IMG/VR virus record: IMGVR_UViG_2711768074_000029
Span: 1 to 11,677 of that record
From: a virus
Taxonomy: Duplodnaviria > Heunggongvirae > Uroviricota > Caudoviricetes
Length of the DNA: 11,677 bases
Direction: 5' to 3' (one strand)
The stretch's first letter is position 1. The number at the start of each line of letters is the position of its first letter. The position numbers were made by a program, and so were the translations under genes. The notes beneath the pieces are model-generated. The model was not told the origin of the DNA. It made no database searches and saw only the letters and a program-made list of their open reading frames with translations. Positions 1 to 11,677 of this stretch are shown piece after piece.

Positions 1-60
1 GGTATCCGTTCTGCTGAAGTGTCATGGCGTTGATTTTACGGTGACTCTTCGACAGTGAAA

Positions 61-83
61 AGAAAAAAGGCCGCAGAGCGGCC
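61..83 (-). terminator. Intrinsic terminator ending the leftward int-distal operon
   Basis: Stem ggccgc (69-74), loop aga, gcggcc (78-83); the plus-strand A-run 63-68 becomes a U-run directly after the hairpin on the minus transcript. Lies about 125 nt downstream of the stop at 209. Confidence 0.5.
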
Positions 84-208
84 ATAATTACATTCAAAAA
101 TCAATAAGTTGCATAATTATCAATAACTTACAGACACGCAAAAACACAGCCAACCACAGCAAGTAACAGGGATGTGGTCACTTTGTGGATCATATCGCCA
201 CCATAAAT

Positions 209-646
209 TTACTTAATAACAGTAACAACAGCCACAAGCACAGCCATCGCAGACAGGACAATACCTGTGAGTAGCCAAGTCTGATTTGCAAATGATTTCT
301 GAAGTTCAGTACGATGCTCAGCCATCTCAACTTTCAGAGACTGGCGCAAATCAGCCATCTCAGACTTCAGGGATTGGCGCGATTCTGCCATCTCAAGCCG
401 CAACCCTTCACGAATCTCCAGTACATCAAATTTGGTGGCAAAGGATTCACTTCTCGTGGTGAGAGTAATCAGGTTGTTTTTGATTTCAGTTACATCACTT
501 TCTAGGCAACTAACTCGCCGTTCAAGGTCGTCATTCATGCCATCGCCTCCATCATTACCACTTCCTGTCACTTGGTTGTTGGATACATTATTGGCATTCT
601 CTTTCTTTTTTCTGAACGGTAAGATTGCAGTACTGTCCGGCATCAT
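209..646 (-). CDS. Hypothetical coiled-coil protein with C-terminal transmembrane helix (tail-anchored); 145 aa, or 109 aa if it starts at the internal MNDDLERR
   Basis: ATG overlaps the upstream stop (ATGA coupling). The N-terminus is low-complexity (N/G/S-rich), the middle carries 11-residue repeats EMAxxRQSLKx, and the C-terminus WLLTGIVLSAMAVLVAVVTVIK is hydrophobic. No family recognised. Confidence 0.6.
   Translation of the reverse strand: MMPDSTAILPFRKKKENANNVSNNQVTGSGNDGGDGMNDDLERRVSCLESDVTEIKNNLITLTTRSESFATKFDVLEIREGLRLEMAESRQSLKSEMADLRQSLKVEMAEHRTELQKSFANQTWLLTGIVLSAMAVLVAVVTVIK
319..417. repeat. Three imperfect tandem 33-bp units inside the coiled-coil gene, in frame (encode 11-aa hendecad repeats)
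   Basis: Units start at 319 (cagccatctcaac...), 352 (cagccatctcaga...) and 385 (ctgccatctcaag...). Confidence 0.6.
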
Positions 647-1005
647 TTGTCATCACCCTGCTTACCTACCCAGCTCATAAAAGCTCGGGCCGAGTAACGA
701 TGAACAAACCCACATCTGTTGCAGGTAAGTCTGAATTCATAGTTATGGATATTTTTCCGATCATCTCCCTCATATCCCGGATACCCAGTAAATGGACCGA
801 TGTAATCAAGCATAATCAAAGCTCTTGAATTGCCCCCCTCAGCAGTTTTCACTTCAGCCCCATCCGCAATAGCCCCCGTCAAATACATGTGCATATCCGT
901 ATCGCCACACGACAAACATTTTTCATTCGCAGACGACTCATCGAGAAAACGAGCAAAATTATCAAGCGTTGCCATTCCTTTAAGTTCATCTATATCAAAC
1001 TTCAC
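643..1005 (-). CDS. Hypothetical zinc-ribbon protein (Cys4: C30, C33, C95, C98), 120 aa
   Basis: GTG start lies 2 nt after the int stop, with a strong SD (AGGAGG, plus 1015-1020 reverse complement) inside the int 3' end. CxxC...CxxC pairs KCLSCG and TCNRCG. No family recognised. Confidence 0.6.
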   Translation of the reverse strand: MKFDIDELKGMATLDNFARFLDESSANEKCLSCGDTDMHMYLTGAIADGAEVKTAEGGNSRALIMLDYIGPFTGYPGYEGDDRKNIHNYEFRLTCNRCGFVHRYSARAFMSWVGKQGDDK

Positions 1006-1007
1006 TT

Positions 1008-1985
1008 TTAAGCACCTCCTAGCGGATTAAATCTCACCGCATCCTGCAAGTAATCCGGCGCAAGATGGGCATAAATCATTGTTGTCTGAATCTTTGCGTG
1101 CCCCAGAATTTTCTGGAGCGTCAGAATATTGCCGCCGTTCATCATGAAATGACTGGCGAAGGTGTGGCGCAGCGCATGAACAGCCTGGCCGTCAGGAACA
1201 TCAGGTGCGACCGTTTTGATGACATCGCGAACCAATGGATAATCCAGCGTCGGAAACACCAGTTTCCCGCCCCGTTTTTTGATCTTTTCAAACAAATCTT
1301 CGGAGATTGGGACGGTACGGTTTTTACTGTTCTTTGTTTTTGAAAAAGTGATTCGACAATGCAGAACGCGGCGTTGCTCCAGTGCCGCTACCTCGCCCCA
1401 TCGCGCCCCGGTCGATAAAAGGATTTCAACAGCCAGCCGCTCATCGGGATTTTCAGCCAGTGCATCCAGCAACTGAACACATTCAGACTTACTCAGATAT
1501 CCCATTTCGCGTTCGTTAACCTTCATTCCTTTCAGACCTTGAACGGGGTTATCGTTAAGGAAATGGCCGGAAGAGATGAGTGCACTAAACATCGCGCTTA
1601 ACGCCCCAATCTCTCGATTTATGGTGCTGGGCTGTATCCCCTGCTCTATCCTGGACACACGTAGCTCGGTGAGCATCGTTGTATTAAGTTTATGCACGCA
1701 CGGGTCATCCATTGCCTCACTCAAGCGCAGCAATTTAAGGCGCGTGTTATGCCCTGACTTCATTAGCTGGCCGTGGTATTTCCACCACAAGTCAATAAGC
1801 ACTGACAGCGGACGGCGATCAATGGAGTTTCCTTTCCACTCATTGTTATGCTGTTGTGCCAGCACCCACCGCTCATATAAAACTGCATCCGATTTCGTTT
1901 TAAATTTTTTGCGAATGCGTTTGCCTTTACGCCCCTCCGGGCGCATGTCAAGAAGATACCCTCCCGGAATTGATTTTATGCTCAT
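1008..1985 (-). CDS. int: Tyrosine integrase, P2 Int family
   Basis: Translation from MSIKSIPGGYLLDMRPEGRKGKRIRKKF matches the P2 Int N-terminus pattern. The catalytic region (GARWGE...HALRHTFASHFMMNGG...LGHAKIQTTMIYAHLAPDYLQDA) has the R..HxxR..Y signature. I take ATG 1985 as start rather than the ORF-track start at 2135, which would overlap C by 100 bp. Confidence 0.9.
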   Translation of the reverse strand: MSIKSIPGGYLLDMRPEGRKGKRIRKKFKTKSDAVLYERWVLAQQHNNEWKGNSIDRRPLSVLIDLWWKYHGQLMKSGHNTRLKLLRLSEAMDDPCVHKLNTTMLTELRVSRIEQGIQPSTINREIGALSAMFSALISSGHFLNDNPVQGLKGMKVNEREMGYLSKSECVQLLDALAENPDERLAVEILLSTGARWGEVAALEQRRVLHCRITFSKTKNSKNRTVPISEDLFEKIKKRGGKLVFPTLDYPLVRDVIKTVAPDVPDGQAVHALRHTFASHFMMNGGNILTLQKILGHAKIQTTMIYAHLAPDYLQDAVRFNPLGGA

Positions 1986-2034
1986 TCGTGAACCCCCAGC
2001 GTTACAAGACCACCATGCCCCCAGCGTTCCATGA

Positions 2035-2346
2035 TTAGCCGGGCTGTGTGCCAGTCTTGCGGGGTTTTTGAGAAGGCGATGTGCTTTTTGGCCCATCAGG
2101 GGAGAGAGACGGACTGATCTGTCCTGCAGCCTCATTAGTTTTTCCTGTCATAAGCCATATTGTGTACTTTTCGAAATCTTTAGAATTAATTACGCGATCG
2201 ACAACACTTAAACCGACCTCTCTTTTACCACTCTCATAGTTCTTTATGGTTCCGAGGTTTATCCCGGTAACATCAGCAAACTCAGCTTGAGTTAACCCTT
2301 CACTCTTTCGTATCTCTTTCAGTTTTTTTTCATATCCACTTGACAT
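2035..2346 (-). CDS. C: Immunity repressor, P2 C-like (HTH)
   Basis: 103 aa. LTQAEFADVTGINLGTIKNYESG is an HTH, and the C-terminal YTIWLMTGK...AGQISPSL resembles P2 C (YTLWFMTNQ...SGQIAPAL, from memory). GGAG SD 6 nt before the ATG. Sits directly upstream of int on the same strand, as in P2. Confidence 0.8.
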   Translation of the reverse strand: MSSGYEKKLKEIRKSEGLTQAEFADVTGINLGTIKNYESGKREVGLSVVDRVINSKDFEKYTIWLMTGKTNEAAGQISPSLSPDGPKSTSPSQKPRKTGTQPG

Positions 2347-2437
2347 GGTGGTCTCCAGACGACTAAATTAATACTAAAGGTCGCCTAGTGACGACTTTTA
2401 GCAACAAATAACCACAGACAGAACAGGTTATCACATC
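2347..2437. promoter_or_regulatory. Divergent Pc/Pe-type immunity switch region with direct-repeat candidate operator half-sites
   Basis: 91 bp between the divergent C and cox-like genes. Direct repeats GACGACT at 2358-2364 and 2390-2396, 32 bp apart. Exact -35/-10 elements not confidently placed. Confidence 0.4.
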
Positions 2438-2722
2438 ATGGCAAAAGTCCTGAACACACACGAACAGGCAGACTTTGAGCGTTTGGCGGCGTTCTATCCA
2501 TACCGCGATGCGCATGGATTACCAATACTTGAAGAGAGTCTGAAGGATTACGCAAAGCGCACCAATCAAACTGTTAACGCAGTAAAAAGGCAGGCTGACA
2601 GAGCACTAATACCCATCAATCAGGGCGAAAAAGGTGGGAAGCGAACAGTAAATCTCTACGCGATTTTTCTGAAAACCATCAGGAACGCAGAGAAGTACGT
2701 TCAGATGACAGGACTTAATTGA
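2438..2722 (+). CDS. Cox-like excisionase / early regulator (first gene of early operon)
   Basis: 94 aa, in the position of P2 cox. The central segment YAKRTNQTVNAVKRQADRALIPINQ...GGKRTVNLYAIFL has the same HTH-then-basic-strand architecture as P2 Cox. Similarity judged by eye only. Confidence 0.5.
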   Translation: MAKVLNTHEQADFERLAAFYPYRDAHGLPILEESLKDYAKRTNQTVNAVKRQADRALIPINQGEKGGKRTVNLYAIFLKTIRNAEKYVQMTGLN

Positions 2723-2926
2723 ATGGTCAGCAACATCATCAACGCCATCTTGGCACTCGTGTTTATCGAAGTGGGCGTCGCAGCGATTTATCTGTTTCGC
2801 AAACTAACCGGACATGATGAGCGTTTTGTTGATCTCAGCATTGAGTTCATTGCCGCTTATACCAAAGGGCTTTTTCCGGCTGCCATTGGCTCGGTGCTTA
2901 TAGCGATTGTTCTCCGTTTATCATGA
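2723..2926 (+). CDS. Small hydrophobic (two TM-like segments) protein, 67 aa
   Basis: ATG immediately follows the cox-like stop. Hydrophobic stretches IINAILALVFIEVGVAAIYLF and AAIGSVLIAIVLRL. Confidence 0.5.
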   Translation: MVSNIINAILALVFIEVGVAAIYLFRKLTGHDERFVDLSIEFIAAYTKGLFPAAIGSVLIAIVLRLS

Positions 2927-2969
2927 AAAATCTCAGTAATTCATAATCATTGTAGCAAGGAGAGTCGTT

Positions 2970-3077
2970 ATGTGTGGACTGGATAAGATGGATCTTTTCT
3001 TAATCATAACACTATCAGTTAACTTTGGGGTTTTATTGGGCCTTGCGGTTGTCATGCAGGGGTATAAACGAAAATGA
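2970..3077 (+). CDS. Possible 35-aa membrane peptide
   Basis: AGGAG (2958-2962) 7 nt before ATG 2970. Translation MCGLDKMDLFLIITLSVNFGVLLGLAVVMQGYKRK. Too short to verify. Confidence 0.25.
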   Translation: MCGLDKMDLFLIITLSVNFGVLLGLAVVMQGYKRK

Positions 3078-3163
3078 ATAAGCAGAAGAAAAACAGCGAA
3101 CCCCGTTACACGAGGTTTCGCCGTAAGTACTTTGAAAATGGTCGTTATGCAGGAAAAGTTAAA

Positions 3164-3400
3164 TCAGTGTCTACGATTCGGCATTACAGCCCCGACCAAT
3201 TCAGCTTTAACAATATATTCCTGCAAGAATGCAACGAGGTCTTTTGCTTGCTCAAGAGTTAAACCAGTGAATAGCTCACCAGCCTCAGGAAGTTTTGCAT
3301 TATTGGCTAAATGATAGTGGAAACGTAAACAGGCAAGATTGTTTGCAGTAACACATTCAAGCCCAGCAGGAATATAGATAGGTACTTCTTTTTGGGACAT
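3164..3400 (-). CDS. Small antisense-oriented hypothetical protein (78 aa) inside the early-operon region
   Basis: Strong SD (AAGGAG, read on the minus strand) 8 nt before ATG at 3400. Translation MSQKEVPIYIPAGLECVTANNLACLRFHY...TLEQAKDLVAFLQEYIVKAELVGAVMPNRRH looks protein-like. Region is AT-rich relative to its neighbours. Confidence 0.4.
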   Translation of the reverse strand: MSQKEVPIYIPAGLECVTANNLACLRFHYHLANNAKLPEAGELFTGLTLEQAKDLVAFLQEYIVKAELVGAVMPNRRH

Positions 3401-3499
3401 ATTAATCTCCTTTCTGTTTGTGTGGAAACAACAGAATACCATGCGCCGGGCATGGCTAAAACCCGGCACCAATTCGTAACAGCGGCAGGATATTTTTGT

Positions 3500-3850
3500 A
3501 TGAAACAACGACGCAATTCTCCACAGCAGCGTTTCCGCAACGGTGCGGAACACCACGCTAACCGTTTCGCTACCAGTGCATCACGCAGCAACATCCGCTA
3601 CAGCCTGAGTGATACACACGCAACGCCGGATGGCTACCCAGTAAAACAAATCGGCGAGCACGCCTGGCTGATTGAGAAAGCTGGAATCGTGATCCACAAA
3701 TGCCCACGCAATCCGTTTACCGGAAACCGCATTTTTGCATTGAGCTGTGGCGACAATCAGTTCGGGCAGGATTTCACATTATACGAAGCACTTCGCACGG
3801 TTGATCGTCTGCTTCGCGGGCAAAGTTTTATTAAACAGGCTGATTTATAA
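3500..3850 (+). CDS. Hypothetical early protein (116 aa from ATG 3500; alternative starts 3452 or 3392)
   Basis: ORF 3392..3850. ATG 3500 has AGGA 9 nt upstream and avoids overlapping the minus-strand gene. No family recognised. Confidence 0.5.
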   Translation: MKQRRNSPQQRFRNGAEHHANRFATSASRSNIRYSLSDTHATPDGYPVKQIGEHAWLIEKAGIVIHKCPRNPFTGNRIFALSCGDNQFGQDFTLYEALRTVDRLLRGQSFIKQADL

Positions 3851-3860
3851 CAGGTGCTTT

Positions 3861-4148
3861 ATGACCAAAGACCATGCACAAGGTGTATTTATCCGTTTTA
3901 TTGATTTTCGCGGTGAACTGTTATTACGTGCATCCGCTATTGACGGAGTGACTCCGGCGGGTAAAAACGGAGCCGACGAAGCCACTTACGTTTATCTGAA
4001 CGGCACGCGACTGCTTCTGGAACTTCCGTACCAGACCGTACGAGAAATCATTAGCGAAGCTGAAAAGGCACGCCAGGCTAATGGCGATGAACCCTATATC
4101 GAAATTATTTGTATGGATTCAGAAGCTGAAATACAGAAAGCAGATTAA
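3861..4148 (+). CDS. Hypothetical early protein, 95 aa
   Basis: ATG 3861 follows the upstream stop by 10 nt, with AGGTG upstream. Translation MTKDHAQGVFIRFIDFRGELLLRAS... Confidence 0.55.
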   Translation: MTKDHAQGVFIRFIDFRGELLLRASAIDGVTPAGKNGADEATYVYLNGTRLLLELPYQTVREIISEAEKARQANGDEPYIEIICMDSEAEIQKAD

Positions 4149-4159
4149 AGGGCGTTGTG

Positions 4160-4402
4160 ATGGGCAAAGAATATAAAACTCTCATTAACAAAGCACTTGA
4201 GCGTTTTTATTTTCGCTTAAGTGCATCAGGCGCTCATGCTGAACGTGCGGCCCGTGACTCATTGACCAGAGCAATCCGAAGTCTGTATGACGTGGCTTTT
4301 TACGCTGATGATCTGGATGCACTTAACGAACTTTCCGAGCTGATCTGTGCCGCAGAATGCGGGGAACATATTGAACCGTATAAGCTGGGGAATATCGCAT
4401 GA
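4160..4402 (+). CDS. Hypothetical early protein, 80 aa
   Basis: ATG 4160 (GTG 4157 possible), with AAGGG upstream. Translation MGKEYKTLINKALERFYFRLS... Confidence 0.55.
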   Translation: MGKEYKTLINKALERFYFRLSASGAHAERAARDSLTRAIRSLYDVAFYADDLDALNELSELICAAECGEHIEPYKLGNIA

Positions 4403-4512
4403 GTATATTTATCTCATGGCTTGTTCTGATTATTTCGGTGGCCTGCGCTATTGGGATTATGCGAATTATTCATTCAATAAAAAAGATTGAACGTTTTTTC
4501 ACTGGCGAATAA
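4399..4512 (+). CDS. Possible 37-aa hydrophobic peptide, translationally coupled
   Basis: ATGA overlap with the preceding stop. Translation MSIFISWLVLIISVACAIGIMRIIHSIKKIERFFTGE. Confidence 0.3.
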   Translation: MSIFISWLVLIISVACAIGIMRIIHSIKKIERFFTGE

Positions 4513-4598
4513 CAGAGCAAATAAAACCACAGATAAAATAAGAAAATGTAAAAACAATCCGCATTAGCGGAGGTATTCGCACACGCCAAGGAGGCGTA

Positions 4599-4802
4599 AT
4601 GGCAATTAAGCATTTTCCTGTCGTTCGTTTTACCTCCAGAGGGCGTGAATACGAAGTCGACGAACGCCTGATTACCACAATCGACAAACACCGTTCGGAA
4701 AAGGATGCACACCACATCTACCTCACTGACGGCACTTACTTCTGCGCCACCAACGTGGCGCGGGTGAATCTTATCCGACAGGTACAGGAGCCACGCAGAT
4801 GA
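4599..4802 (+). CDS. Hypothetical protein, 67 aa
   Basis: Strong SD AAGGAGG (4588-4594) before ATG 4599. First of three ATGA-coupled genes. Confidence 0.6.
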   Translation: MAIKHFPVVRFTSRGREYEVDERLITTIDKHRSEKDAHHIYLTDGTYFCATNVARVNLIRQVQEPRR

Positions 4803-5065
4803 CCATTCTGGACTACATCGCTACCCATCCGGGTTGTAGCGGCGGAGAAATCGCCGCAGCACTGAATACCCCAACCACAGCCATCAATGCTGAGTTACGC
4901 CGACTCTGGCGCGGCGGCTTAGTCATCAGAACAAACCGCAGCACAGGTGGTCGCGCTCGCAAAGCAGGAGGCCAAGCTTCTTACCACGTAAACCCGATGC
5001 CGTTCGGGTGTAGCAATCCACTTACTCACATGTTTAACCAGCTACTGAAGGAAACCAGAGCATGA
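4799..5065 (+). CDS. Winged-helix DNA-binding protein, 88 aa
   Basis: ATGA overlap with the upstream gene. ILDYIATHPGCSGGEIAAALNTPTTAINAELRRLWRGGLVIR is a typical wHTH (recognition helix plus wing). Confidence 0.6.
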   Translation: MTILDYIATHPGCSGGEIAAALNTPTTAINAELRRLWRGGLVIRTNRSTGGRARKAGGQASYHVNPMPFGCSNPLTHMFNQLLKETRA

Positions 5066-5361
5066 GCACCATCAATCACCAGAAGCTACGCGAACTGGCA
5101 TTTGCCCTGCAACGAATGGCAACGCCTCAAAAATTACTGGTATTTCGCGCAATGCTCTCGCCGTCTGCTGTGCTGGCACTGCTGGATGAGCTGGAGCACG
5201 CCAGAACCACGGCTCCTGCCATTCGCCTGACGCTCCATCATGAAATCGCTGATTTCTGCGCGACGTTGAAGGCGCCAGGCGAACCGGAAACACCGGAAGC
5301 AATACGGCAAGAGCTGCTGCAACGCATTGACAAGGTTTTTGATTTTTTTCTGAACCAGTAA
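5062..5361 (+). CDS. Hypothetical protein, 99 aa
   Basis: ATGA overlap with the wHTH gene. Predicted helical and acidic; no family recognised. Confidence 0.6.
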   Translation: MSTINHQKLRELAFALQRMATPQKLLVFRAMLSPSAVLALLDELEHARTTAPAIRLTLHHEIADFCATLKAPGEPETPEAIRQELLQRIDKVFDFFLNQ

Positions 5362-5483
5362 GAAACCAGAACATGCACACACAAAAAAACCGCTTGCCAT
5401 GCCGCAATCAGTCAGGTTACATTTCCGCTGCACCTCACAAAACGGGTGTCGGGTTTCGCAGCCTGCTGACTACACAAGCGCAC

Positions 5484-5504
5484 AACCGCGCCAGCGGTTT
5501 TTTT
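5484..5504 (+). terminator. Intrinsic terminator-like hairpin within the early region
   Basis: Stem aaccgc (5484-5489), loop gcca, gcggtt (5494-5499), followed by a 7-T run to 5504. Confidence 0.45.
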
Positions 5505-5683
5505 GTGCGTACTGTATTGCCACGTTTTTTTCGCGTCAGAATTATGGCGGGGCGTACGGGGCCGACTTCGGTCGGGCCGGGTTCTTGTGTAGCCGGTACT
5601 GCGAACCTCGTACGTCTCGCCACCCACAGTTTCGCAGCTCTGGATGGTGAGTTTTCACAACTTACTACACAAGGGGCCACACC

Positions 5684-5860
5684 ATGGCAAACCGCAGACT
5701 TTCCCGCGCATCACGCGTCGCGCAAATCATGCACATCAATATGCTGCATGAGCGCAGCCACGCACTATCAAACATTTATTCCGCCTCTGTTTTCAGCTAT
5801 CTGGCGGATGATCTGCACGAGCTTCAACAGCTCATCCAGCAGCAAAACAAACTCCATTAA
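5684..5860 (+). CDS. Small hypothetical protein, 58 aa (below the ORF-track cutoff)
   Basis: AAGGGG (5671-5676) 7 nt before ATG 5684; stop TAA 5858-5860. Translation MANRRLSRASRVAQIMHINMLHERSHALSNIYSASVFSYLADDLHELQQLIQQQNKLH. Confidence 0.45.
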   Translation: MANRRLSRASRVAQIMHINMLHERSHALSNIYSASVFSYLADDLHELQQLIQQQNKLH

Positions 5861-5932
5861 TTCCTGTTCCGGGCCTTTCCTGCACCTTGCGGCGGGAGGC
5901 CTTCGCACATCTGTAACAAGAGGATTGCCGCA

Positions 5933-6298
5933 ATGATTCTCGCCAACGACTTTCTTGAATACCTGCTCAACACAGAACGTGATCTTGCCGCTCGCGTGCG
6001 TGATCGTTATGACATGTACCAGAAATCCCTGCCTGTACCGCAGCTCGCTGACGGAAAGATTGTTATTGATGGTCGCTACATGATTGACAGCCACGAGGGA
6101 AATTACAGGCTTTACCGCATTGAAGGTGGCACCCCGTCCGTTATTGGCATTTACCAGCGCCCATCCTCTGCAATCGTCGATGTGATTGCCGACAGCATCC
6201 GCATCACACATCGCCATGCCGACACAGAAGACACCGTGCTGGAAATTCAGCGGCTGGCTGCCGTCTGCCGCGACACCCTGAATGGCATGACGAAGTAA
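5933..6298 (+). CDS. Hypothetical protein immediately upstream of gpA, 121 aa
   Basis: AAGAGGA (5918-5924) 8 nt before ATG 5933. Stop lies 6 nt before the gpA start. Confidence 0.6.
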   Translation: MILANDFLEYLLNTERDLAARVRDRYDMYQKSLPVPQLADGKIVIDGRYMIDSHEGNYRLYRIEGGTPSVIGIYQRPSSAIVDVIADSIRITHRHADTEDTVLEIQRLAAVCRDTLNGMTK

Positions 6299-6304
6299 AT
6301 CACT

Positions 6305-9112
6305 ATGACGGCAGAGTACATCAGGGACTGGCAACAACCGCGCCACGCAGTGGGGCGTGAAGGAACGGGGATCCCCGTTCCTGAATCCGCGCTTTCCTCC
6401 TGGCTGGATGCCTACCGGGCAGAGAACGAGCGCCGCCAGGAAATGGCTGATGCGGCGTTCTCCGCCACGCCGCTGGGCAACCTGATTAATAAAAGCCTGG
6501 ACGCACAGGAAAAACAGGACAAAACCATCACACTGGCAGGAGACGCCAGAAAACAGGCACGCGGCGCGGTGGATGAAGCCATGGCCTCGCTGCGCCTGCT
6601 GCCGTCCTATCTGCGCGATCCGCTTATTCGCCACCTCTCCTTCCTGCGCAAAAAACAGGAAGCCGATCGCCGGAAAGGCAAAAAGAGCTGGCAGGCTGAA
6701 CGCTACGCGCGCGGAACCCTGCGCAAAATATTCGAACGTCTGGACCGCACCGACCACCGCTGGCTGACACCGGGTTATCGCTCCCTTGCCGGACGCGAAC
6801 GCCTGGATGATTTGCTTTACCTGCCGCAGCTCAACCAGCACCAGATACAGACGCTGGCCACCATGACGGCGGCGATGTTCAGCAGCACCTTCGAAAAACT
6901 CTGCGATGGCTTTGGCGCGACCGATGGCGAACTGACCATGGATGTAACGCTGAAGGCGTATCAGATGCTGGCCCGCATGGCGTTACACCTGCACGCCATG
7001 CCGCCACATTACGAAGCTCTGAACAAGAGCGATCCGGATACGGAACTGTTACCGGGCGCAATCCTTCGCCTGACCTGTGCGGAATGGTGGAAACGCAAAC
7101 TGTGGCTGTTACGTTGCGAGTGGCGGGAAGAACAACTCCGCGCCGCCTGTCTGGTTTCCAGAAAAACATCACCCTATCTGAGCCAGGACGCGTTAAGCGA
7201 GTTTCGCGCACAGCGCGAGAAAACACGCGATTTCCTGAAAAGTTTCATGCTGGAAAACGAAGACGGGTTCACGATTGATCTCGAGACAGTGTATTACGCG
7301 GGAGTAAGTAACCCGGTTCACCGTAAGGCAGAAATGATGGCCACCATGAAGGGACTGGAACTTCTGGCCGAAGCCCGTGGCGACAAAGCGGTGTTTCTGA
7401 CCATCACCTGCCCGTCAAAATACCACGCCACAACAGAGAACGGTCATCCGAATCCCAAATGGAACGGGGCCACCATGCGCGACTCCAGCGATTACCTGGT
7501 TAACACGTTTTTTGCGGCGGTCCGCAAGAAACTGAACCGCGACGGCCTGCGCTGGTATGGCATCCGCACAGTGGAGCCTCACCATGACGGCACCGTGCAC
7601 TGGCATATGATGGTCTTTGCTCATCCGGAAGAAATCGACACCATTGTGTCCCACACCCGCGATATTGCCATTCAGGAAGATCGTCACGAGCTGGGTGATG
7701 ATATTACCCCACGCTTTAAGGCGGAGTACGTCGACGGCTCAAAAGGCACGCCAACCAGCTACATCGCCACCTACATCGGAAAGAACCTGGACAGCCGCGC
7801 CGTGGATGGTATCGACCCGAAAACGGGCAAGCCACGCGTTGACCACGAAACCGGAAAATCAATGGCCGAGAGCGTGGAGCGCGCCATCGGCTGGGCGCGC
7901 CTTCACCGGGTCCGCCAGTTCCAGTTCTTTGGCATCCCCTCCCGTCAGGTGTGGCGTGAACTGCGCCGCCTTGCCAGCCAGATGGCACGCAACCCGGAAG
8001 GCCCGCAACGGCTGAAGGATGACGCAATGGATGCAGTGCTCGCTGCCGCTGATGCCGGGTGTTTTGCCTCCTACATTGAAAAACAGGGCGGCGTACTTGT
8101 TCCACGCAAAGACTACCTGATTCGCACTGCCTACGACCTCGCAGATGAGCTGAACGATTACGGCGAACAGAGCGTACAGATTTACGGGATCTGGTCACCA
8201 CTCATCGGGGAGTCTTCCCGTGTGTGCACACATCCGGATAACTGGAAGCTGGTAAGACGTAAACCGGAAGCGGAAGACAGCGCCCGCGAAAATGGTTTTG
8301 ACCTTCAGGGCGGCCCTGCCGCCCCTTGGACTCGTGGCAATAACTGTCCCCGTGTACAGGAAACGGACAACAACGGGACAGAACAGCCGGAAGAACGGCC
8401 AGCACCGTGGCCGCAGCTCCCTGACGGCGTTGAAGTGAACGAATGGATGCGCTCACTGAAACGGCACGAACGCCGGACGCTGATGCGTTCGCTGCGTGAC
8501 AAGCAGGCAAAAAACAGCAGTGATGAAATGCAGAACTGGACACAGAGCCGCAAACAGCCACGGCCTTTGCCTGATAACCACGAATTACTCGCTAAAGAAT
8601 GGCGGGAATCTGCCGAATCTCTCGGCCTGTATATCGGTGAACAGCAGATGCAGCACCTGTTACGGGGCGGCAGCCTGTACGTTGACGGCAGCATCATTGC
8701 ACCACAGGGATTTGAAATTGTACGCAAACCGGATACCCGCCCGGACAGCCGAATCACGCAGCTCTGGCAGCACCTGAGCCGTAATCACGGCGTAAGCAGC
8801 ACGGAGATCCGCCATAACCCGGTCGCCAGCTATCTGGCACAGCTGGGGGCATCAGACCCCGAAGCCGCCGCACGTCTGGCATCCACACTTCAGCAGGACC
8901 AGAACACCATGAAAACCCCCGTTACCGTGCTTTCTGACATGCTGCGCGCCATCCGTGACGCAGAGCACGCACAGAGAATCAGTGAAACAACTGAACGCGC
9001 CCGCCGCAAAGCAGACCTGCTGCGGGGTGGCCTGACCAGTAGAAACAAAAAACAGACAGAAACGGGATTCACAAATCCCGTAAATGAGCAAAAAACGCGC
9101 CGCGATATATGA
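6305..9112 (+). CDS. A: Rolling-circle replication initiator (replication endonuclease), P2 gpA family
   Basis: 935 aa. HUH motif RTVEPHHDGTVHWHMMVF (about 7570-7620) and catalytic tyrosine pair SYIATYIGKN (about 7760-7790) match P2 gpA (RVVEPHHDGTPHWHMMVF; GYIAKYISKN, from memory). The N-terminal PRHAVGRE also matches. Confidence 0.92.
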   Translation: MTAEYIRDWQQPRHAVGREGTGIPVPESALSSWLDAYRAENERRQEMADAAFSATPLGNLINKSLDAQEKQDKTITLAGDARKQARGAVDEAMASLRLLPSYLRDPLIRHLSFLRKKQEADRRKGKKSWQAERYARGTLRKIFERLDRTDHRWLTPGYRSLAGRERLDDLLYLPQLNQHQIQTLATMTAAMFSSTFEKLCDGFGATDGELTMDVTLKAYQMLARMALHLHAMPPHYEALNKSDPDTELLPGAILRLTCAEWWKRKLWLLRCEWREEQLRAACLVSRKTSPYLSQDALSEFRAQREKTRDFLKSFMLENEDGFTIDLETVYYAGVSNPVHRKAEMMATMKGLELLAEARGDKAVFLTITCPSKYHATTENGHPNPKWNGATMRDSSDYLVNTFFAAVRKKLNRDGLRWYGIRTVEPHHDGTVHWHMMVFAHPEEIDTIVSHTRDIAIQEDRHELGDDITPRFKAEYVDGSKGTPTSYIATYIGKNLDSRAVDGIDPKTGKPRVDHETGKSMAESVERAIGWARLHRVRQFQFFGIPSRQVWRELRRLASQMARNPEGPQRLKDDAMDAVLAAADAGCFASYIEKQGGVLVPRKDYLIRTAYDLADELNDYGEQSVQIYGIWSPLIGESSRVCTHPDNWKLVRRKPEAEDSARENGFDLQGGPAAPWTRGNNCPRVQETDNNGTEQPEERPAPWPQLPDGVEVNEWMRSLKRHERRTLMRSLRDKQAKNSSDEMQNWTQSRKQPRPLPDNHELLAKEWRESAESLGLYIGEQQMQHLLRGGSLYVDGSIIAPQGFEIVRKPDTRPDSRITQLWQHLSRNHGVSSTEIRHNPVASYLAQLGASDPEAAARLASTLQQDQNTMKTPVTVLSDMLRAIRDAEHAQRISETTERARRKADLLRGGLTSRNKKQTETGFTNPVNEQKTRRDI

Positions 9113-9160
9113 AGCGCGCACAAAACAGGCGAAAACGGGATTTAAAAATCCCGTAAACGA
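9057..9160. promoter_or_regulatory. Two copies of an ACGGGATT(T)...AATCCCGT palindrome: candidate parC-like centromere / ParR operator
   Basis: Palindrome 1 at 9062-9081 (8-bp arms, loop caca) lies inside the gpA 3' end. Palindrome 2 at 9135-9154 (9-bp arms) overlaps a possible promoter (TTTAAA 9141-9146, 17 nt, ATTAAT 9164-9169) upstream of parM. Neither is followed by a T-run. Confidence 0.4.
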
Positions 9161-9188
9161 TTAATTAATCAACATAAGGAAAAGCGAC

Positions 9189-10148
9189 ATGAAAATTTGT
9201 ATCGACGACGGCTCCACCAACATCAAGCTGGCATGGACTGAGAACGGCGAACGCCGCAACGCCATCAGCCCGAACAGCTTCAAGTCGGAATGGTCTGCGC
9301 CGTTCGGTGGCACGCAGCCCGCGAACTACATGCTTGATGGCGTGCGCTATGGTTTTGATCCGGTCAGCGATCGCTTTGTCCAGACGACCGACACGCAATA
9401 CCAGTACAGCGATGTGAATGTAATCGCCATTCACCACGCGCTGGTCAAATCAGGCATCACACCACAGGAAGTGGATGTGGTTGTTACCCTGCCACTGAGC
9501 GAGTATTTCGACACAAACGCACAGCCGGACATGGCCAACATCAACCGCAAAAAAGCGAACGTTATGCGCCCGGTGGAGTACCAGAACGGCGAGGCATTCA
9601 CTATCCGTAACGTGCGGGTTATGCCTGAATCCATTCCGGCTGGCTTTAAAGCACTGGCTGACATGAGTCCGTTTGAATCCCTGCTGATTGTGGATTTGGG
9701 CGGAACCACGCTGGATGTGGCAAAGGTTCAGGGGCAACTGGCAGGTATCAGCCAGGTGTTTTGCGATCCACACGTAGGCGTTTCTCTGATGGCCGATGCC
9801 GTACTGTCGGTGATGGCCACTAACGGTATGCGCACCAGTCACCACATCGCCAATACCATTATCGAACGTCGCCATAATGAAGCCTGGCTGCGCCAGCACA
9901 TCCACAATGACGCGCATTACGCCAGCCTGATGGCGGTTATTCGTGAAAAGGAAGAAACACTGAAACAACGCGTGATCCGCGCGCTGGCGGTTTTTTCGGG
10001 TTACGGGCGGGTGATGGTTGTCGGTGGCGGGGCGGAGATTGTGGCACCCGCTATCCGCGAAGCCTGCGGAGTTAATGCGACTTTCATCGCGGACGGGGTG
10101 CCACAGTTTGCTCTGGTTAATGGGCTGTACGCAATGGACAAGGAGTAA
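9189..10148 (+). CDS. parM: Actin-like segregation ATPase, ParM/StbA family
   Basis: 319 aa. N-terminus MKICIDDGSTNIKLAW matches R1 ParM (MLVFIDDGSTNIKLQW). Further matches: YSDVNVIAIHHAL, NVRVMPESIPAGF, LLIVDLGGTTLD, VMVVGGGAE and the C-terminal LVNGLY. AAGGA SD 8 nt upstream. Confidence 0.9.
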   Translation: MKICIDDGSTNIKLAWTENGERRNAISPNSFKSEWSAPFGGTQPANYMLDGVRYGFDPVSDRFVQTTDTQYQYSDVNVIAIHHALVKSGITPQEVDVVVTLPLSEYFDTNAQPDMANINRKKANVMRPVEYQNGEAFTIRNVRVMPESIPAGFKALADMSPFESLLIVDLGGTTLDVAKVQGQLAGISQVFCDPHVGVSLMADAVLSVMATNGMRTSHHIANTIIERRHNEAWLRQHIHNDAHYASLMAVIREKEETLKQRVIRALAVFSGYGRVMVVGGGAEIVAPAIREACGVNATFIADGVPQFALVNGLYAMDKE

Positions 10149-10152
10149 ACCA

Positions 10153-10464
10153 ATGACGACACCAACCAGACGGATAAGTTTCTATCTGAAGCCCGCCGCC
10201 GTCAAGAACGAAGGAGAAGCATGCGCCTGGCTGGACAGCCTTACACCAGAAGCCCGCAAAAGCGGCCAACGCGTGGCTTTTCTGGCCGGGCTGGCACTTC
10301 TGAAGACGAATCCGGCAGAGGCTTACCGACTGGCCGCATGGGCTGATGATGAGATGTTACCTGTGACACAAATCAGCTCAAAAAAGTTTGAAGCACAGTC
10401 TGCACCAGTGGCTAAGATAACCAGCCAGATGGCTGGGAATATCCGGGCGTTATTTCCTGAGTAA
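10153..10464 (+). CDS. parR: ParR-like centromere-binding adaptor / repressor (ribbon-helix-helix)
   Basis: 103 aa from ATG 10153, with an AGGAG SD inside the parM 3' end. RRISFYLKP...LDSLTPEARKSGQRVAFLAGLALL aligns with R1 ParR (RRTIAFKLNP...LDSIPQGERSRLNRAALTAGLALY). The ORF-track start at 10018 overlaps parM and is rejected. Confidence 0.8.
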   Translation: MTTPTRRISFYLKPAAVKNEGEACAWLDSLTPEARKSGQRVAFLAGLALLKTNPAEAYRLAAWADDEMLPVTQISSKKFEAQSAPVAKITSQMAGNIRALFPE

Positions 10465-10592
10465 AAGCATCTGCGCGAAAAATGCTCACGTTTATAGAGA
10501 CAGTATCATTCCATTTGGCACACTTACTTCAATAATCGATCTGTTAAACAAATAGATTGTCTATTATCTATCGATTAAAACGATCAATTATC

Positions 10593-10620
10593 TTGACAGT
10601 AATGTGCCTTTTTGTAAGAT
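10593..10620 (+). promoter_or_regulatory. Near-consensus sigma70-type promoter with a GATC overlapping the -10
   Basis: TTGACA (10593-10598), 16-nt spacer, TAAGAT (10615-10620). GATC sites at 10535, 10582 and 10618. AT-rich repeats (ATCGAT, ATTATCT, ATAGAT/ATCTAT) lie just upstream. Confidence 0.4.
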
Positions 10621-10670
10621 CGTTCGCATTGTGAGCGACAAGATAATTGCGCGGCATTGTCCATGCAAAA

Positions 10671-10698
10671 CGCCCCAATAGCAGCAACTATTGGGGCG
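10671..10698. other. Perfect 11-bp-stem hairpin (cgccccaatag / cagcaa / ctattggggcg)
   Basis: Seen directly. On the minus strand it is followed by UUUUG; on the plus strand there is no U-run. Could be a leader structure of the plus transcript or a weak minus-strand terminator. Confidence 0.4.
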
Positions 10699-10726
10699 TA
10701 AAACTCGGTCGGACTCACTTAACCTG

Positions 10727-10811
10727 ATATGCGTGCCTTCCGAAGTAAATCAAAATGTGCGTCGTATATTTTATTGCTTACACGCACCTCTGTAAAGGCA
10801 CGCATATTTTT
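10727..10811 (+). promoter_or_regulatory. Long-range 13-bp perfect inverted repeat enclosing an inner stem, followed by a T-run, directly upstream of the orf89 RBS (attenuator- or operator-like)
   Basis: atatgcgtgcctt (10727-10739) pairs with aaggcacgcatat (10795-10807), followed by ttttt. Inner inverted repeat gtgcgt / acgcac. The GAGG RBS is at 10817-10820. Confidence 0.4.
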
Positions 10812-10828
10812 CCTATGAGGTAAATAAA

Positions 10829-11098
10829 GTGCGGGCTAAAACAGGTATTTGCAAGAACCCTCATCGTTATAATCCAACATTTCTGTCTCTCCCTGAATAT
10901 CAAGGACAAGAAGGTCGGCACAAATGCGCTGCCTGTGCTTTTGAGCTAGGCATAAAAGATGCGCTTGAAGGACGCGCTATGGCTCAGAATGATTTAGTTT
11001 TAGCTAACATTCCGTTTAGCCAGGCTGGAACTGTAAGGCACAGAGATGCCTATGAAGCATATGTTCGTGGTTGGCGATTAATAAACAGCAACAATTGA
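10829..11098 (+). CDS. Hypothetical 89-aa protein with a Cys/His cluster (C8, H12, H31, C33, C36); orphan transcription unit
   Basis: GTG start 7 nt after GAGG; stop TGA 11096-11098, followed 9 nt later by a strong intrinsic terminator. No family recognised. Confidence 0.6.
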   Translation: MRAKTGICKNPHRYNPTFLSLPEYQGQEGRHKCAACAFELGIKDALEGRAMAQNDLVLANIPFSQAGTVRHRDAYEAYVRGWRLINSNN

Positions 11099-11106
11099 TA
11101 CTTTTG

Positions 11107-11130
11107 AAGCGCCGATAAGGCGCTTTTTTT
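11107..11130 (+). terminator. Rho-independent terminator
   Basis: Stem aagcgcc (11107-11113), loop gataa, ggcgctt (11119-11125), then a 7-T run. Confidence 0.75.
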
Positions 11131-11131
11131 G

Positions 11132-11280
11132 TTTGCACGATAGTGCACAAGTTTGCACAATTTTTTTGAACGACTTTTTGTACTTCCGGCCCGCGTGGTG
11201 GCTGGATCCGTCAAGGATCCGTACGTGCACAAAAAAACGCGTTTTTTCTGCGCGCAGGTGACGGGGGAACAGCCCGCGTT
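11132..11280. other. Repeat-rich non-coding region: candidate cos / packaging region
   Basis: TTTGCAC at 11132 and 11152; GTGCAC at 11144 and 11225; direct repeat GGATCCGT at 11204 and 11215; palindrome A7-CGCG-T6 at 11231-11247. A G-rich segment ggtgacgggggaacagccc (about 11257-11275) partly resembles the P2 cohesive end GGCGAGGCGGGGAAAGCAC as I recall it (13 of 19). Lies between the replication/cargo genes and a leftward gene, as cos does in a P2 prophage. Confidence 0.3.
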
Positions 11281-11533
11281 TCAGGGGGTAAATAGCATTC
11301 CCTGAACGATGTCGCAGAGATAGAACAGAATGGCTGTATTTCTCACGCTGAGCGTGAAAAAGACGTGAGGGCTTTTGATTTGATGGGGTGAAAGGTAAGG
11401 CCGTCAAAATCGCACTGAGACGGCGAGAACATGCAGTCAACGCGGTGGGATTGCGTAAGAGTCTGACTGTCGATGATGGCAATCAGCAGGAAAGCGTCGT
11501 GAAATTATCTGACTGATACAGGAGCTGGAGAGT

Positions 11534-11558
11534 CGGGGCATAAATTTTTTATGCCCCG
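11534..11558 (-). terminator. Hairpin downstream of the leftward edge gene (possible terminator)
   Basis: 11-bp stem cggggcataaa / tttatgccccg with loop ttt. No clean U-run follows on either strand. Confidence 0.3.
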
Positions 11559-11584
11559 GCGAAGCAGCAGACAAGCGAAGCGCG

Positions 11585-11677
11585 TCAGGATGTGGGCTGG
11601 GTGTCTAACAGTGCGTAAGGGTTAAAGCGGATCACCTCTTCGCCAAGCCAGTCATTGATGTGCTTCATGGCCTCCAT
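11585..11677 (-). CDS. 3' end (last 30 codons) of a leftward gene truncated by the window edge; position matches portal gene Q of P2-like phages, identity unverified
   Basis: Open frame on the minus strand from the window edge to stop TGA (plus tca 11585-11587); C-terminal peptide ...KHINDWLGEEVIRFNPYALLDTQPTS. Assignment to Q rests on synteny only. Confidence 0.35.
   Translation of the reverse strand: MEAMKHINDWLGEEVIRFNPYALLDTQPTS

Follow-up and report, generated by a model that had tools for sequence, protein, structure and literature searches.

The archetype of the locus reported here is the type II partition system ParMRC (parA/stb) of plasmid R1, in which the centromere parC, the actin-like ATPase gene parM and the adaptor gene parR follow one another in that order. 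The R1 parC consists of two blocks of five direct 11-bp iterons, and the structure of R1 ParM with a ParR peptide identifies the C-terminal segment of ParR as the contact with ParM. A related pair of genes (parMR) was analysed in a DNA stretch of 11,677 nucleotides (IMG/VR record IMGVR_UViG_2711768074_000029, positions 1 to 11,677; hereafter the window), which corresponds to the left arm of an Escherichia coli prophage of the P88-like type (Xuanwuvirus, Peduoviridae; P2-like), inserted beside btuC. Both genes follow gpA, which encodes the rolling-circle replication endonuclease. The cassette was found to be intact, conserved and linked to this type of gpA, and it probably acts on the phage DNA while this is circular and replicating.

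The gene order of the prophage locus is that of R1. The two ParM proteins aligned over 315 residues with the ATPase motifs kept, an N-terminal DNA-binding region and a C-terminal xN-x3-L motif are common to the two ParR proteins, and in both systems the repeats lie directly 5' of parM and overlap a possible promoter. The differences concern the replicon, which here is a P2-like phage that integrates and replicates by the rolling-circle mode; the candidate parC, with two 20-bp palindromes placed 73 bp apart; the ParR protein, which has 103 amino acids (aa) compared with 117 aa in the R1-type protein and lacks part of the segment that follows the DNA-binding region; and the promoter, which is weak at best. 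The presence of a ParM with intact motifs and, immediately downstream, of a ParR (its fold judged from sequence only) is in keeping with a type II system.

Among integrating prophages, the closest functional parallel is the AlpA/AlpC pair of prophage CGP3 in Corynebacterium glutamicum, which likewise combines an actin-like filament former with an adaptor in an integrated prophage. The AlpAC adaptor binds sites in the upstream region of its own operon, and the system, itself induced early, acts on excised phage circles soon after induction and is needed for their efficient replication (PMC4446434). AlpAC presumably belongs to an unrelated actin-like branch, its host phylum and phage type differ from those of the present element, and its function was demonstrated by experiment, whereas that of parMR is deduced. 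A ParM homologue (47.5% identity to that of the window) is also encoded by the tailed temperate coliphage D6, where it is annotated as 'StbA type plasmid stability protein'; D6 was the one additional phage with a ParM in the collection that was searched. Partition systems of this StbA type occur in other phage-plasmids as well. D6 is a P1-like plasmid prophage, whereas the present element encodes an integrase and over 99% of its copies are integrated.

The closest relatives are P88, 520873, Citrobacter phage phiSM and other members of Xuanwuvirus, in which the cassette has the same position (between gpA and the hotspot) and the same palindromes. The differences are allelic only and lie mostly in the ParR linker, while the cargo 3' of parR differs. 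Part of this was known. The RefSeq records of the P88 group already annotate a 'plasmid segregation protein ParM' and a 'partition protein', and the idea of plasmid maintenance has been published. In a study of the gpA-gpQ locus of E. coli, Rousset et al. 2021 (bioRxiv 10.1101/2021.01.21.427644) noted plasmid-partitioning genes in more than a quarter of P2-like phages, which might be maintained as plasmids. An episomal state was also suggested by Pfeifer et al. (2021), in whose phage-plasmid screen P88 was caught. The gene of phiSM was listed merely as a 'fitness' factor in the Citrobacter rodentium prophage paper, and the cassette was not discussed in the paper describing P88. The present analysis adds the apparent status of the cassette as part of a core module, the monophyly of the phage clade, the two-site geometry of the candidate parC, the near-exclusive chromosomal location and the selection acting on parM.

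ParM and ParR

The two genes of the cassette are the following (coordinates are those of the window throughout).
9189-10148, + strand: parM, actin-fold ATPase of 319 aa, starting MKICIDDGSTNIKLAW (Pfam, alignment with R1 ParM, and PHROG 691, 'partition protein')
10153-10464, + strand: parR, adaptor protein of 103 aa (Pfam Plasmid_stab_B, the ParR/StbB family, E 9.8e-24)

ParM matched both Pfam domains of the family, StbA_N with E 1.8e-82 and the ParM C-terminal domain with E 1.7e-67, and R1 ParM structures, 1mwk among them, aligned with it end to end over its residues 2-316 (E 4.8e-91). Its motifs for phosphate binding, catalysis and adenosine binding (DDGSTNIK, MPESIPAG, DLGGTTLD and GGGAE) are as in R1. 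The search against NCBIfam gave sub-threshold matches only. A preliminary description of the window had recognised ParM and ParR homologues and had allowed for the 319-aa protein being a member of a different actin/Hsp70-fold family; the domain matches, the full-length alignment and the kept motifs identify it as an R1-type ParM. The gene is preceded by a Shine-Dalgarno sequence, AAGGA, at 9176-9180.

The assignment of ParR, also made in that description, was borne out by the Plasmid_stab_B match and by a profile built from ParR relatives, for which the best PDB sequence was pB171 ParR (2jd3; E 0.005, residues 9-74). The single-sequence search of the PDB with ParR gave no match. When ParR was aligned with R1-type, plasmid and phage ParRs (R1-type meaning the ParR encoded beside a ParM identical to that of R1), a conserved N-terminal region (residues 1-65, predicted to bind DNA) was observed, then a linker of variable sequence and, at the C-terminus, a conserved NIRALFPE. 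The last contains a [KR]xN-x3-LFP motif in common with R1-type ParR, and N-x3-LFP is present in plasmid ParRs too. The Shine-Dalgarno sequence of parR (AAGGAG, 10140-10145) lies inside the end of parM, the TAA stop codon of which (10146-10148) is separated by four bases from the parR ATG at 10153. The two genes, previously described as translationally linked, are thus closely spaced and do not overlap, and coupling of their translation is plausible.

Within the E. coli clade, the ratio of non-synonymous to synonymous substitution rates (dN/dS) was 0.06-0.16 for parM and 0.37-0.48 for parR. By these ratios, purifying selection on parM is strong. Within E. coli, ParR exists in many alleles (54-98% identity, with the variation mainly in the linker), compared with at least 97% identity for ParM, and the ParR of the window was 83% identical to that of P88. 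Breakpoints of DNA similarity inside parR were located at 10207, 10299 and 10349, and a variable stretch at 10207-10440 corresponds to the linker. Recombination at the neighbouring hotspot apparently extends into the linker and spares the C-terminal NIxxLFPE motif.

Candidate centromere

Two direct repeats were found 5' of parM.
9046-9087, + strand: repeat unit 1 of the candidate parC, with the palindrome ACGGGATTCACAAATCCCGT at 9062-9081
9119-9160, + strand: repeat unit 2 of the candidate parC, with the palindrome ACGGGATTTAAAAATCCCGT at 9135-9154

Both units were identified by the direct repeat, by enrichment of the palindrome and by the sites of relatives. The 42-nt repeats are 83% identical, each contains one 20-bp palindrome, and the spacing of 73 nt corresponds to about 7 helical turns. 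The palindrome pattern had just two matches in the whole window even when three mismatches were allowed, with a chance expectation of 0.04, and none of 200 shuffled sequences reached two. The palindromes are therefore far above chance and are good candidates for a centromere or operator, as the preliminary description had proposed. That description had placed both upstream of the genes; palindrome 1 lies inside the last codons of the gpA reading frame and is thus not intergenic. In a scan of IMG/VR for the palindrome pattern, 25 single, unpaired matches were obtained, none of them beside a ParM and one of them within a portal gene on an unrelated contig of P2-like type. Such matches are chance occurrences and uninformative.

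Relatives in E. coli retain the outer hexamers (ACGGGA/TCCCG) except for one change of the last base, and their central 8 bp vary. Paired, related sites were present in every phage lineage, one roughly 110-140 nt and one roughly 35-60 nt 5' of the parM ATG, and the equivalent of unit 1 (at about -127 from the parM ATG) was found in the phages of Hafnia, Plesiomonas, Serratia and Enterobacter. The sites of the lineages are as follows.
E. coli lineage: site motif ACGGGAYT-N4-RAATCCCG, spacing 73
Hafnia lineage: TGGGATT..AAACCCA and CGGGTT..AATCCCA, spacing about 72
Plesiomonas lineage: GCGGGACAAC..CCCG in two copies, spacing 72
Serratia and Enterobacter lineages: GCCNNTTAAANGGC-like sites plus an inner inverted pair of ATTTTTCT elements, spacing 93

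The position of the sites is thus kept while their sequence shifts along with ParR, which is expected of a co-evolving ParR/parC pair. The inner ATTTTTCT elements of the Serratia and Enterobacter phages resemble the iterons of the IncL/M plasmid, where direct repeats of roughly 10 bp form arrays of the usual kind. On this view ParR would bind the palindromes, and if the two units are indeed parC, they would represent a minimal two-operator version of it.

Relatives, prevalence and linkage to gpA

The cassette is 94-97% identical at the DNA level to those of P88 (NC_026014), 520873, phiSM, PhiR44_2, Chuche and others. At the protein level, ParM was at least 91% identical to the window sequence within the E. 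coli phage clade, 61-62% identical in Hafnia and Plesiomonas, and 53-58% identical in Serratia and Enterobacter. In the P2-like prophages of Hafnia, Plesiomonas and Enterobacter, the ParM gene lies between gpA and the portal gene Q. In Serratia quinivorans it lies 3' of a gpA homologue, and the locus ends before any portal gene. For ParMs with 52% identity or less, no gpA was found within 4 kb, and several of these were on plasmid records. In relatives, a full P2-type virion gene set adjoins the cassette.

A phylogeny of this ParM against plasmid and phage ParMs had been proposed earlier and was carried out here by neighbour joining. The gpA-linked ParMs of five genera (Escherichia, Plesiomonas, Hafnia, Serratia and Enterobacter) grouped in one clade, which lies within the plasmid ParMs of enterobacteria and has an IncL/M-type ParM among its nearest neighbours. 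The single clade suggests one old capture followed by retention.

About a quarter of the complete E. coli genomes (1303 of 5426) carried the cassette, among them JJ1886, O157:H7 and ST131 strains. It was also found in a Salmonella P2-like prophage carrying sopE, and the linked gpA region was found in addition in the O104:H4 strain 2011C-3493. Rare decayed copies exist, such as the partial parM of NZ_CP027312.1. The parMR genes were detected in 1278 genomes and the 3' part of this gpA type in 1354 (at least 80% coverage), a ratio of about 94%; as the two counts come from separate searches, they express a near-equal frequency and not adjacency in each genome. Similarity to related phages stops exactly at the stop codon of parR (query position 1465, which is 10464 of the window) or inside the parR linker, and the variable hotspot must accordingly start after parR.

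On this distribution, the cassette is part of a replication module that travels with this gpA type and not variable cargo like tin/old. It had earlier been assigned to the post-gpA cargo position of a P2-like prophage. The P2-like affiliation and the place beside gpA are correct, and the term cargo is contradicted by the near-equal gpA counts and by the break at the parR stop codon.

Promoter and terminator signals

A single promoter candidate was identified 5' of parM.
9141-9169, + strand: weak sigma-70-like promoter candidate, TTTAAA-17 nt-ATTAAT (lenient scan, 8/12 matches)

The -35 element (TTTAAA) of this candidate is the centre of palindrome 2, and the ATTAATCAA motif is kept in the phages of Hafnia and Plesiomonas. 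A stricter consensus scan did not predict a promoter at this position. The scan for + strand terminators from 8900 did not predict any up to parM. Since neither a promoter (strict scan) nor a + strand terminator was predicted, read-through from the early operon into parMR is likely.

Chromosomal and extrachromosomal copies

In the complete E. coli genomes, 1449 of the 1451 places at which the cassette was found were on chromosomes and two were on plasmid records. The only clean circular phage genome among the PLSDB records was NZ_CP148288.1, a circle of 34,461 bp with phage genes only, including int, gpA, parMR, the virion genes and a Hok/Gef gene. Another strain of the project that yielded it carries an integrated phage with 99.9% identity to it over 2.4 kb, parR included, and the circle may for this reason be an excised replicative form. 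In NZ_CP148288.1, the Hok/Gef family toxin gene (1291-1431) lies beside ogr; as a module for post-segregational killing it is, besides parMR, the second maintenance function of plasmid type in this phage group. PLSDB plasmids carried no ParM of the phage clade (53-65% identity).

Several other records that might have represented episomes were rejected. The stretch on Salmonella pS2122_1 holds ffh, rpsP, trmD and pheA and is a chromosomal chimera. The Shigella boydii 'plasmid' record is a linear fragment full of IS1, and CP025923 has a RefSeq twin, NC_049344 (phage 520873), which is a linear prophage excerpt with the host gene yecA. A P88-like prophage with parMR, and with sopE in the tail-fibre region, was observed at 12186-37321 of NZ_CP110658.1, a Salmonella 'IncHI2 plasmid' record. 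This record carries ffh, rpsP, trmD and pheA as well as IS26, and represents either an IS26-mediated fusion of chromosome and plasmid or a misassembly.

A stable plasmid lifestyle is thus rare at most. The element has the phage structural genes and the partition genes of a phage-plasmid, and its lysogenic state in the window is an integrated one, beside btuC. Persistence as a plasmid-like episome, one of the two possibilities raised in the preliminary description and published before it, would be rare at best, and the chromosomal location of nearly all copies weighs against a common stable plasmid state.

Proposed function and alternative explanations

The interpretation that we consider probable, although not by a wide measure, is that parMR is a functional type II (ParMRC) cassette that acts, following infection or induction, on phage circles replicating outside the chromosome. 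In this model, ParR dimers would bind both 20-bp palindromes (core ACGGGA-N8-TCCCGT, 73 bp apart) 5' of parM, the conserved C-terminal helix of ParR (...NIRALFPE) would capture the ends of ATP-ParM filaments, and the growing filaments would push apart or disperse the circular phage genomes. The P2-type rolling-circle mode of replication would supply monomeric, plasmid-like circles, and the system would be active while the genome is extrachromosomal and replicating, either after infection or after excision. Transcription of parMR would probably occur together with gpA from the early operon, to which a weak, ParR-repressible promoter under palindrome 2 may add, and the two genes would be largely silent in the integrated lysogen. 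The benefit for the phage would presumably be a reliable distribution or positioning of its circles, as for AlpAC of CGP3, and possibly a short-lived carrier state. A more detailed scenario is put forward only tentatively, and may well not hold: a single ancient capture of a plasmid ParMRC by a P2-like phage, its reshaping with a minimal two-operator centromere, and its use in distributing gpA circles or in supporting a heritable, transient episomal carrier state.

Several observations weigh against this interpretation. The candidate parC has two sites only, compared with the ten direct iterons of R1 and the iteron arrays of IncL/M, the closest plasmid relative, and neither an iteron array nor extra half-sites beyond chance were found in the window (31 half-sites against 31.8 expected), which makes the formation of a ParR scaffold on it uncertain. 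The AlphaFold2 model of ParR was of low confidence (predicted local distance difference test, pLDDT, 54.5; predicted template modelling score, pTM, 0.35; monomer, 19-sequence alignment) and does not confirm the fold; a monomer cannot form a dimeric ribbon-helix-helix. Both palindromes are terminator-like on the minus strand, with T-rich runs after them (the first from the terminator scan, the second as read from the sequence), and minus-strand termination may be an alternative or additional role for them. The proposed timing of expression is derived solely from the absence of predicted signals, and no experiment on the ParMR of P88 or of any Xuanwuvirus was found in the searchable literature.

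The element might instead be a facultative phage-plasmid, persisting for many generations as a low-copy circle with gpA as its replication function and ParMRC ensuring its inheritance. This has been proposed in print (Rousset et al., Pfeifer et al.), and the circular NZ_CP148288.1, which carries int, gpA, parMR and a Hok/Gef gene, and the ParM of the plasmid prophage D6 are in agreement with it. The 1449 chromosomal copies out of 1451 argue in the other direction, as does the absence of phage-clade ParMs from PLSDB plasmids. The remaining 'plasmid' records that were examined are either linear fragments with many insertion sequences (IS) or chimeras in which core genes of the chromosome are present, and NZ_CP148288.1 itself may be a replicative form, given the integrated phage that matches it over 2.4 kb. 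Maintenance as a plasmid would need expression of gpA from the early operon, which in P2-like phages also drives lytic development, and this lifestyle is considered unlikely. A neutral, plasmid-derived hitch-hiker is harder still to reconcile with the data and was given hardly any credence; here the palindromes would be unrelated to parMR and would be, for instance, minus-strand terminators or hairpins at mRNA ends. The terminator-like features of both palindromes on the minus strand and the rare decayed copies, such as NZ_CP027312.1, would fit such an origin. The low dN/dS does not, nor does the retention of the cassette across five genera with the same gene order at 53-62% ParM identity, nor the paired sites that hold their position while their sequence diverges, and there is no evident minus-strand gene that would need termination at this point.

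The preliminary description had also raised the possibility that parMR was co-opted for competition or exclusion, with ParR/parC destabilising replicons that share its centromere or with the pair forming an anti-phage system. The gpA-Q interval is a documented defence hotspot, which holds tin and old in P2 (bioRxiv 10.1101/2021.01.21.427644), and the difference between the ParR alleles (54-98% identity) and ParM (at least 97%) could reflect diversifying pressure. Against this, PADLOC-DB gave no match for ParM, ParR or the 89-aa open reading frame (ORF) downstream, and the presence of the cassette follows the gpA type and is not patchy. The variation of ParR lies in its linker, whereas its DNA-binding N-terminus and the palindrome arms are conserved; the plasmid relatives have different iterons, and the ParR/parC specificity here differs from that of plasmid systems; and the ParM ATPase, which titration by ParR and parC alone would not require, is under strong purifying selection. 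The exclusion hypothesis therefore found no support and appears very improbable.

If the capture scenario outlined above is right, about a quarter of the P2-like prophages of E. coli would use actin-driven segregation of DNA as a routine step of their life cycle. An organisation of circles of this kind, or a carrier state, would change models of the induction, lysogenisation and loss of these prophages, and the two-palindrome parC would offer a compact centromere variant for studying the coupling of ParR to ParM.

Genomic setting and neighbouring features

In the window, two small ORFs come first, followed by the integrase, a C-type repressor, the early genes, gpA, parM and parR; a short variable segment then leads to the 3' end of the portal gene Q. 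The features that flank the cassette are the following.
6305-9112, + strand: gpA-type rolling-circle replication endonuclease of 935 aa (Pfam Phage_GPA, E 1e-130)
10465-11589: variable hotspot, from parR to the 3' end of the portal gene Q (bounded by the end of similarity at 10464; portal gene placed from relatives)
10829-11098, in the hotspot: 89-aa ORF with a Cys-x2-Cys motif (PHROG 3941, function unknown)

The cargo of the hotspot is apparently one small unit (10593-11126), composed of a + strand promoter-like site (TTGACA-16-TAAGAT, 10593-10620), the 89-aa ORF and a terminator-like hairpin (11106-11126). The ORF had no match in Pfam or PADLOC. A possible small antisense RNA was noted on the minus strand at about 10665-10762 (fold z-score -3.5). 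It would start from a promoter-like TTTACA-17-TAAAAT (10796-10768, minus strand) and end at a perfect hairpin with 12-bp arms (10670-10699) followed by a T run. Its Rfam matches were all sub-threshold, to ctRNA/sar antisense families, and its sequence would be complementary to that of the 5' leader in the mRNA of the 89-aa ORF.

At the left end of the prophage, two small ORFs of 145 and 120 aa (PHROGs 9415 and 4293; 209-1005, minus strand) lie between the attachment site on the btuC side and the integrase, and may represent a second cargo position. In the early region, two Rfam matches above the gathering score were obtained, to the Hfq-binding RNA isrK (5430-5504, + strand, 61.9 bits) and to the C4 antisense RNA (5540-5627, + strand, 83.2 bits). 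They lie 5' of gpA and just 5' of a 58-aa ORF (5684-5860) that matched the Pfam 'Derepression protein' family. These two RNA matches account for the stretch 5373-5936, in which there are no convincing ORFs, and the pair resembles the immI antisense-RNA module of P1/P7.

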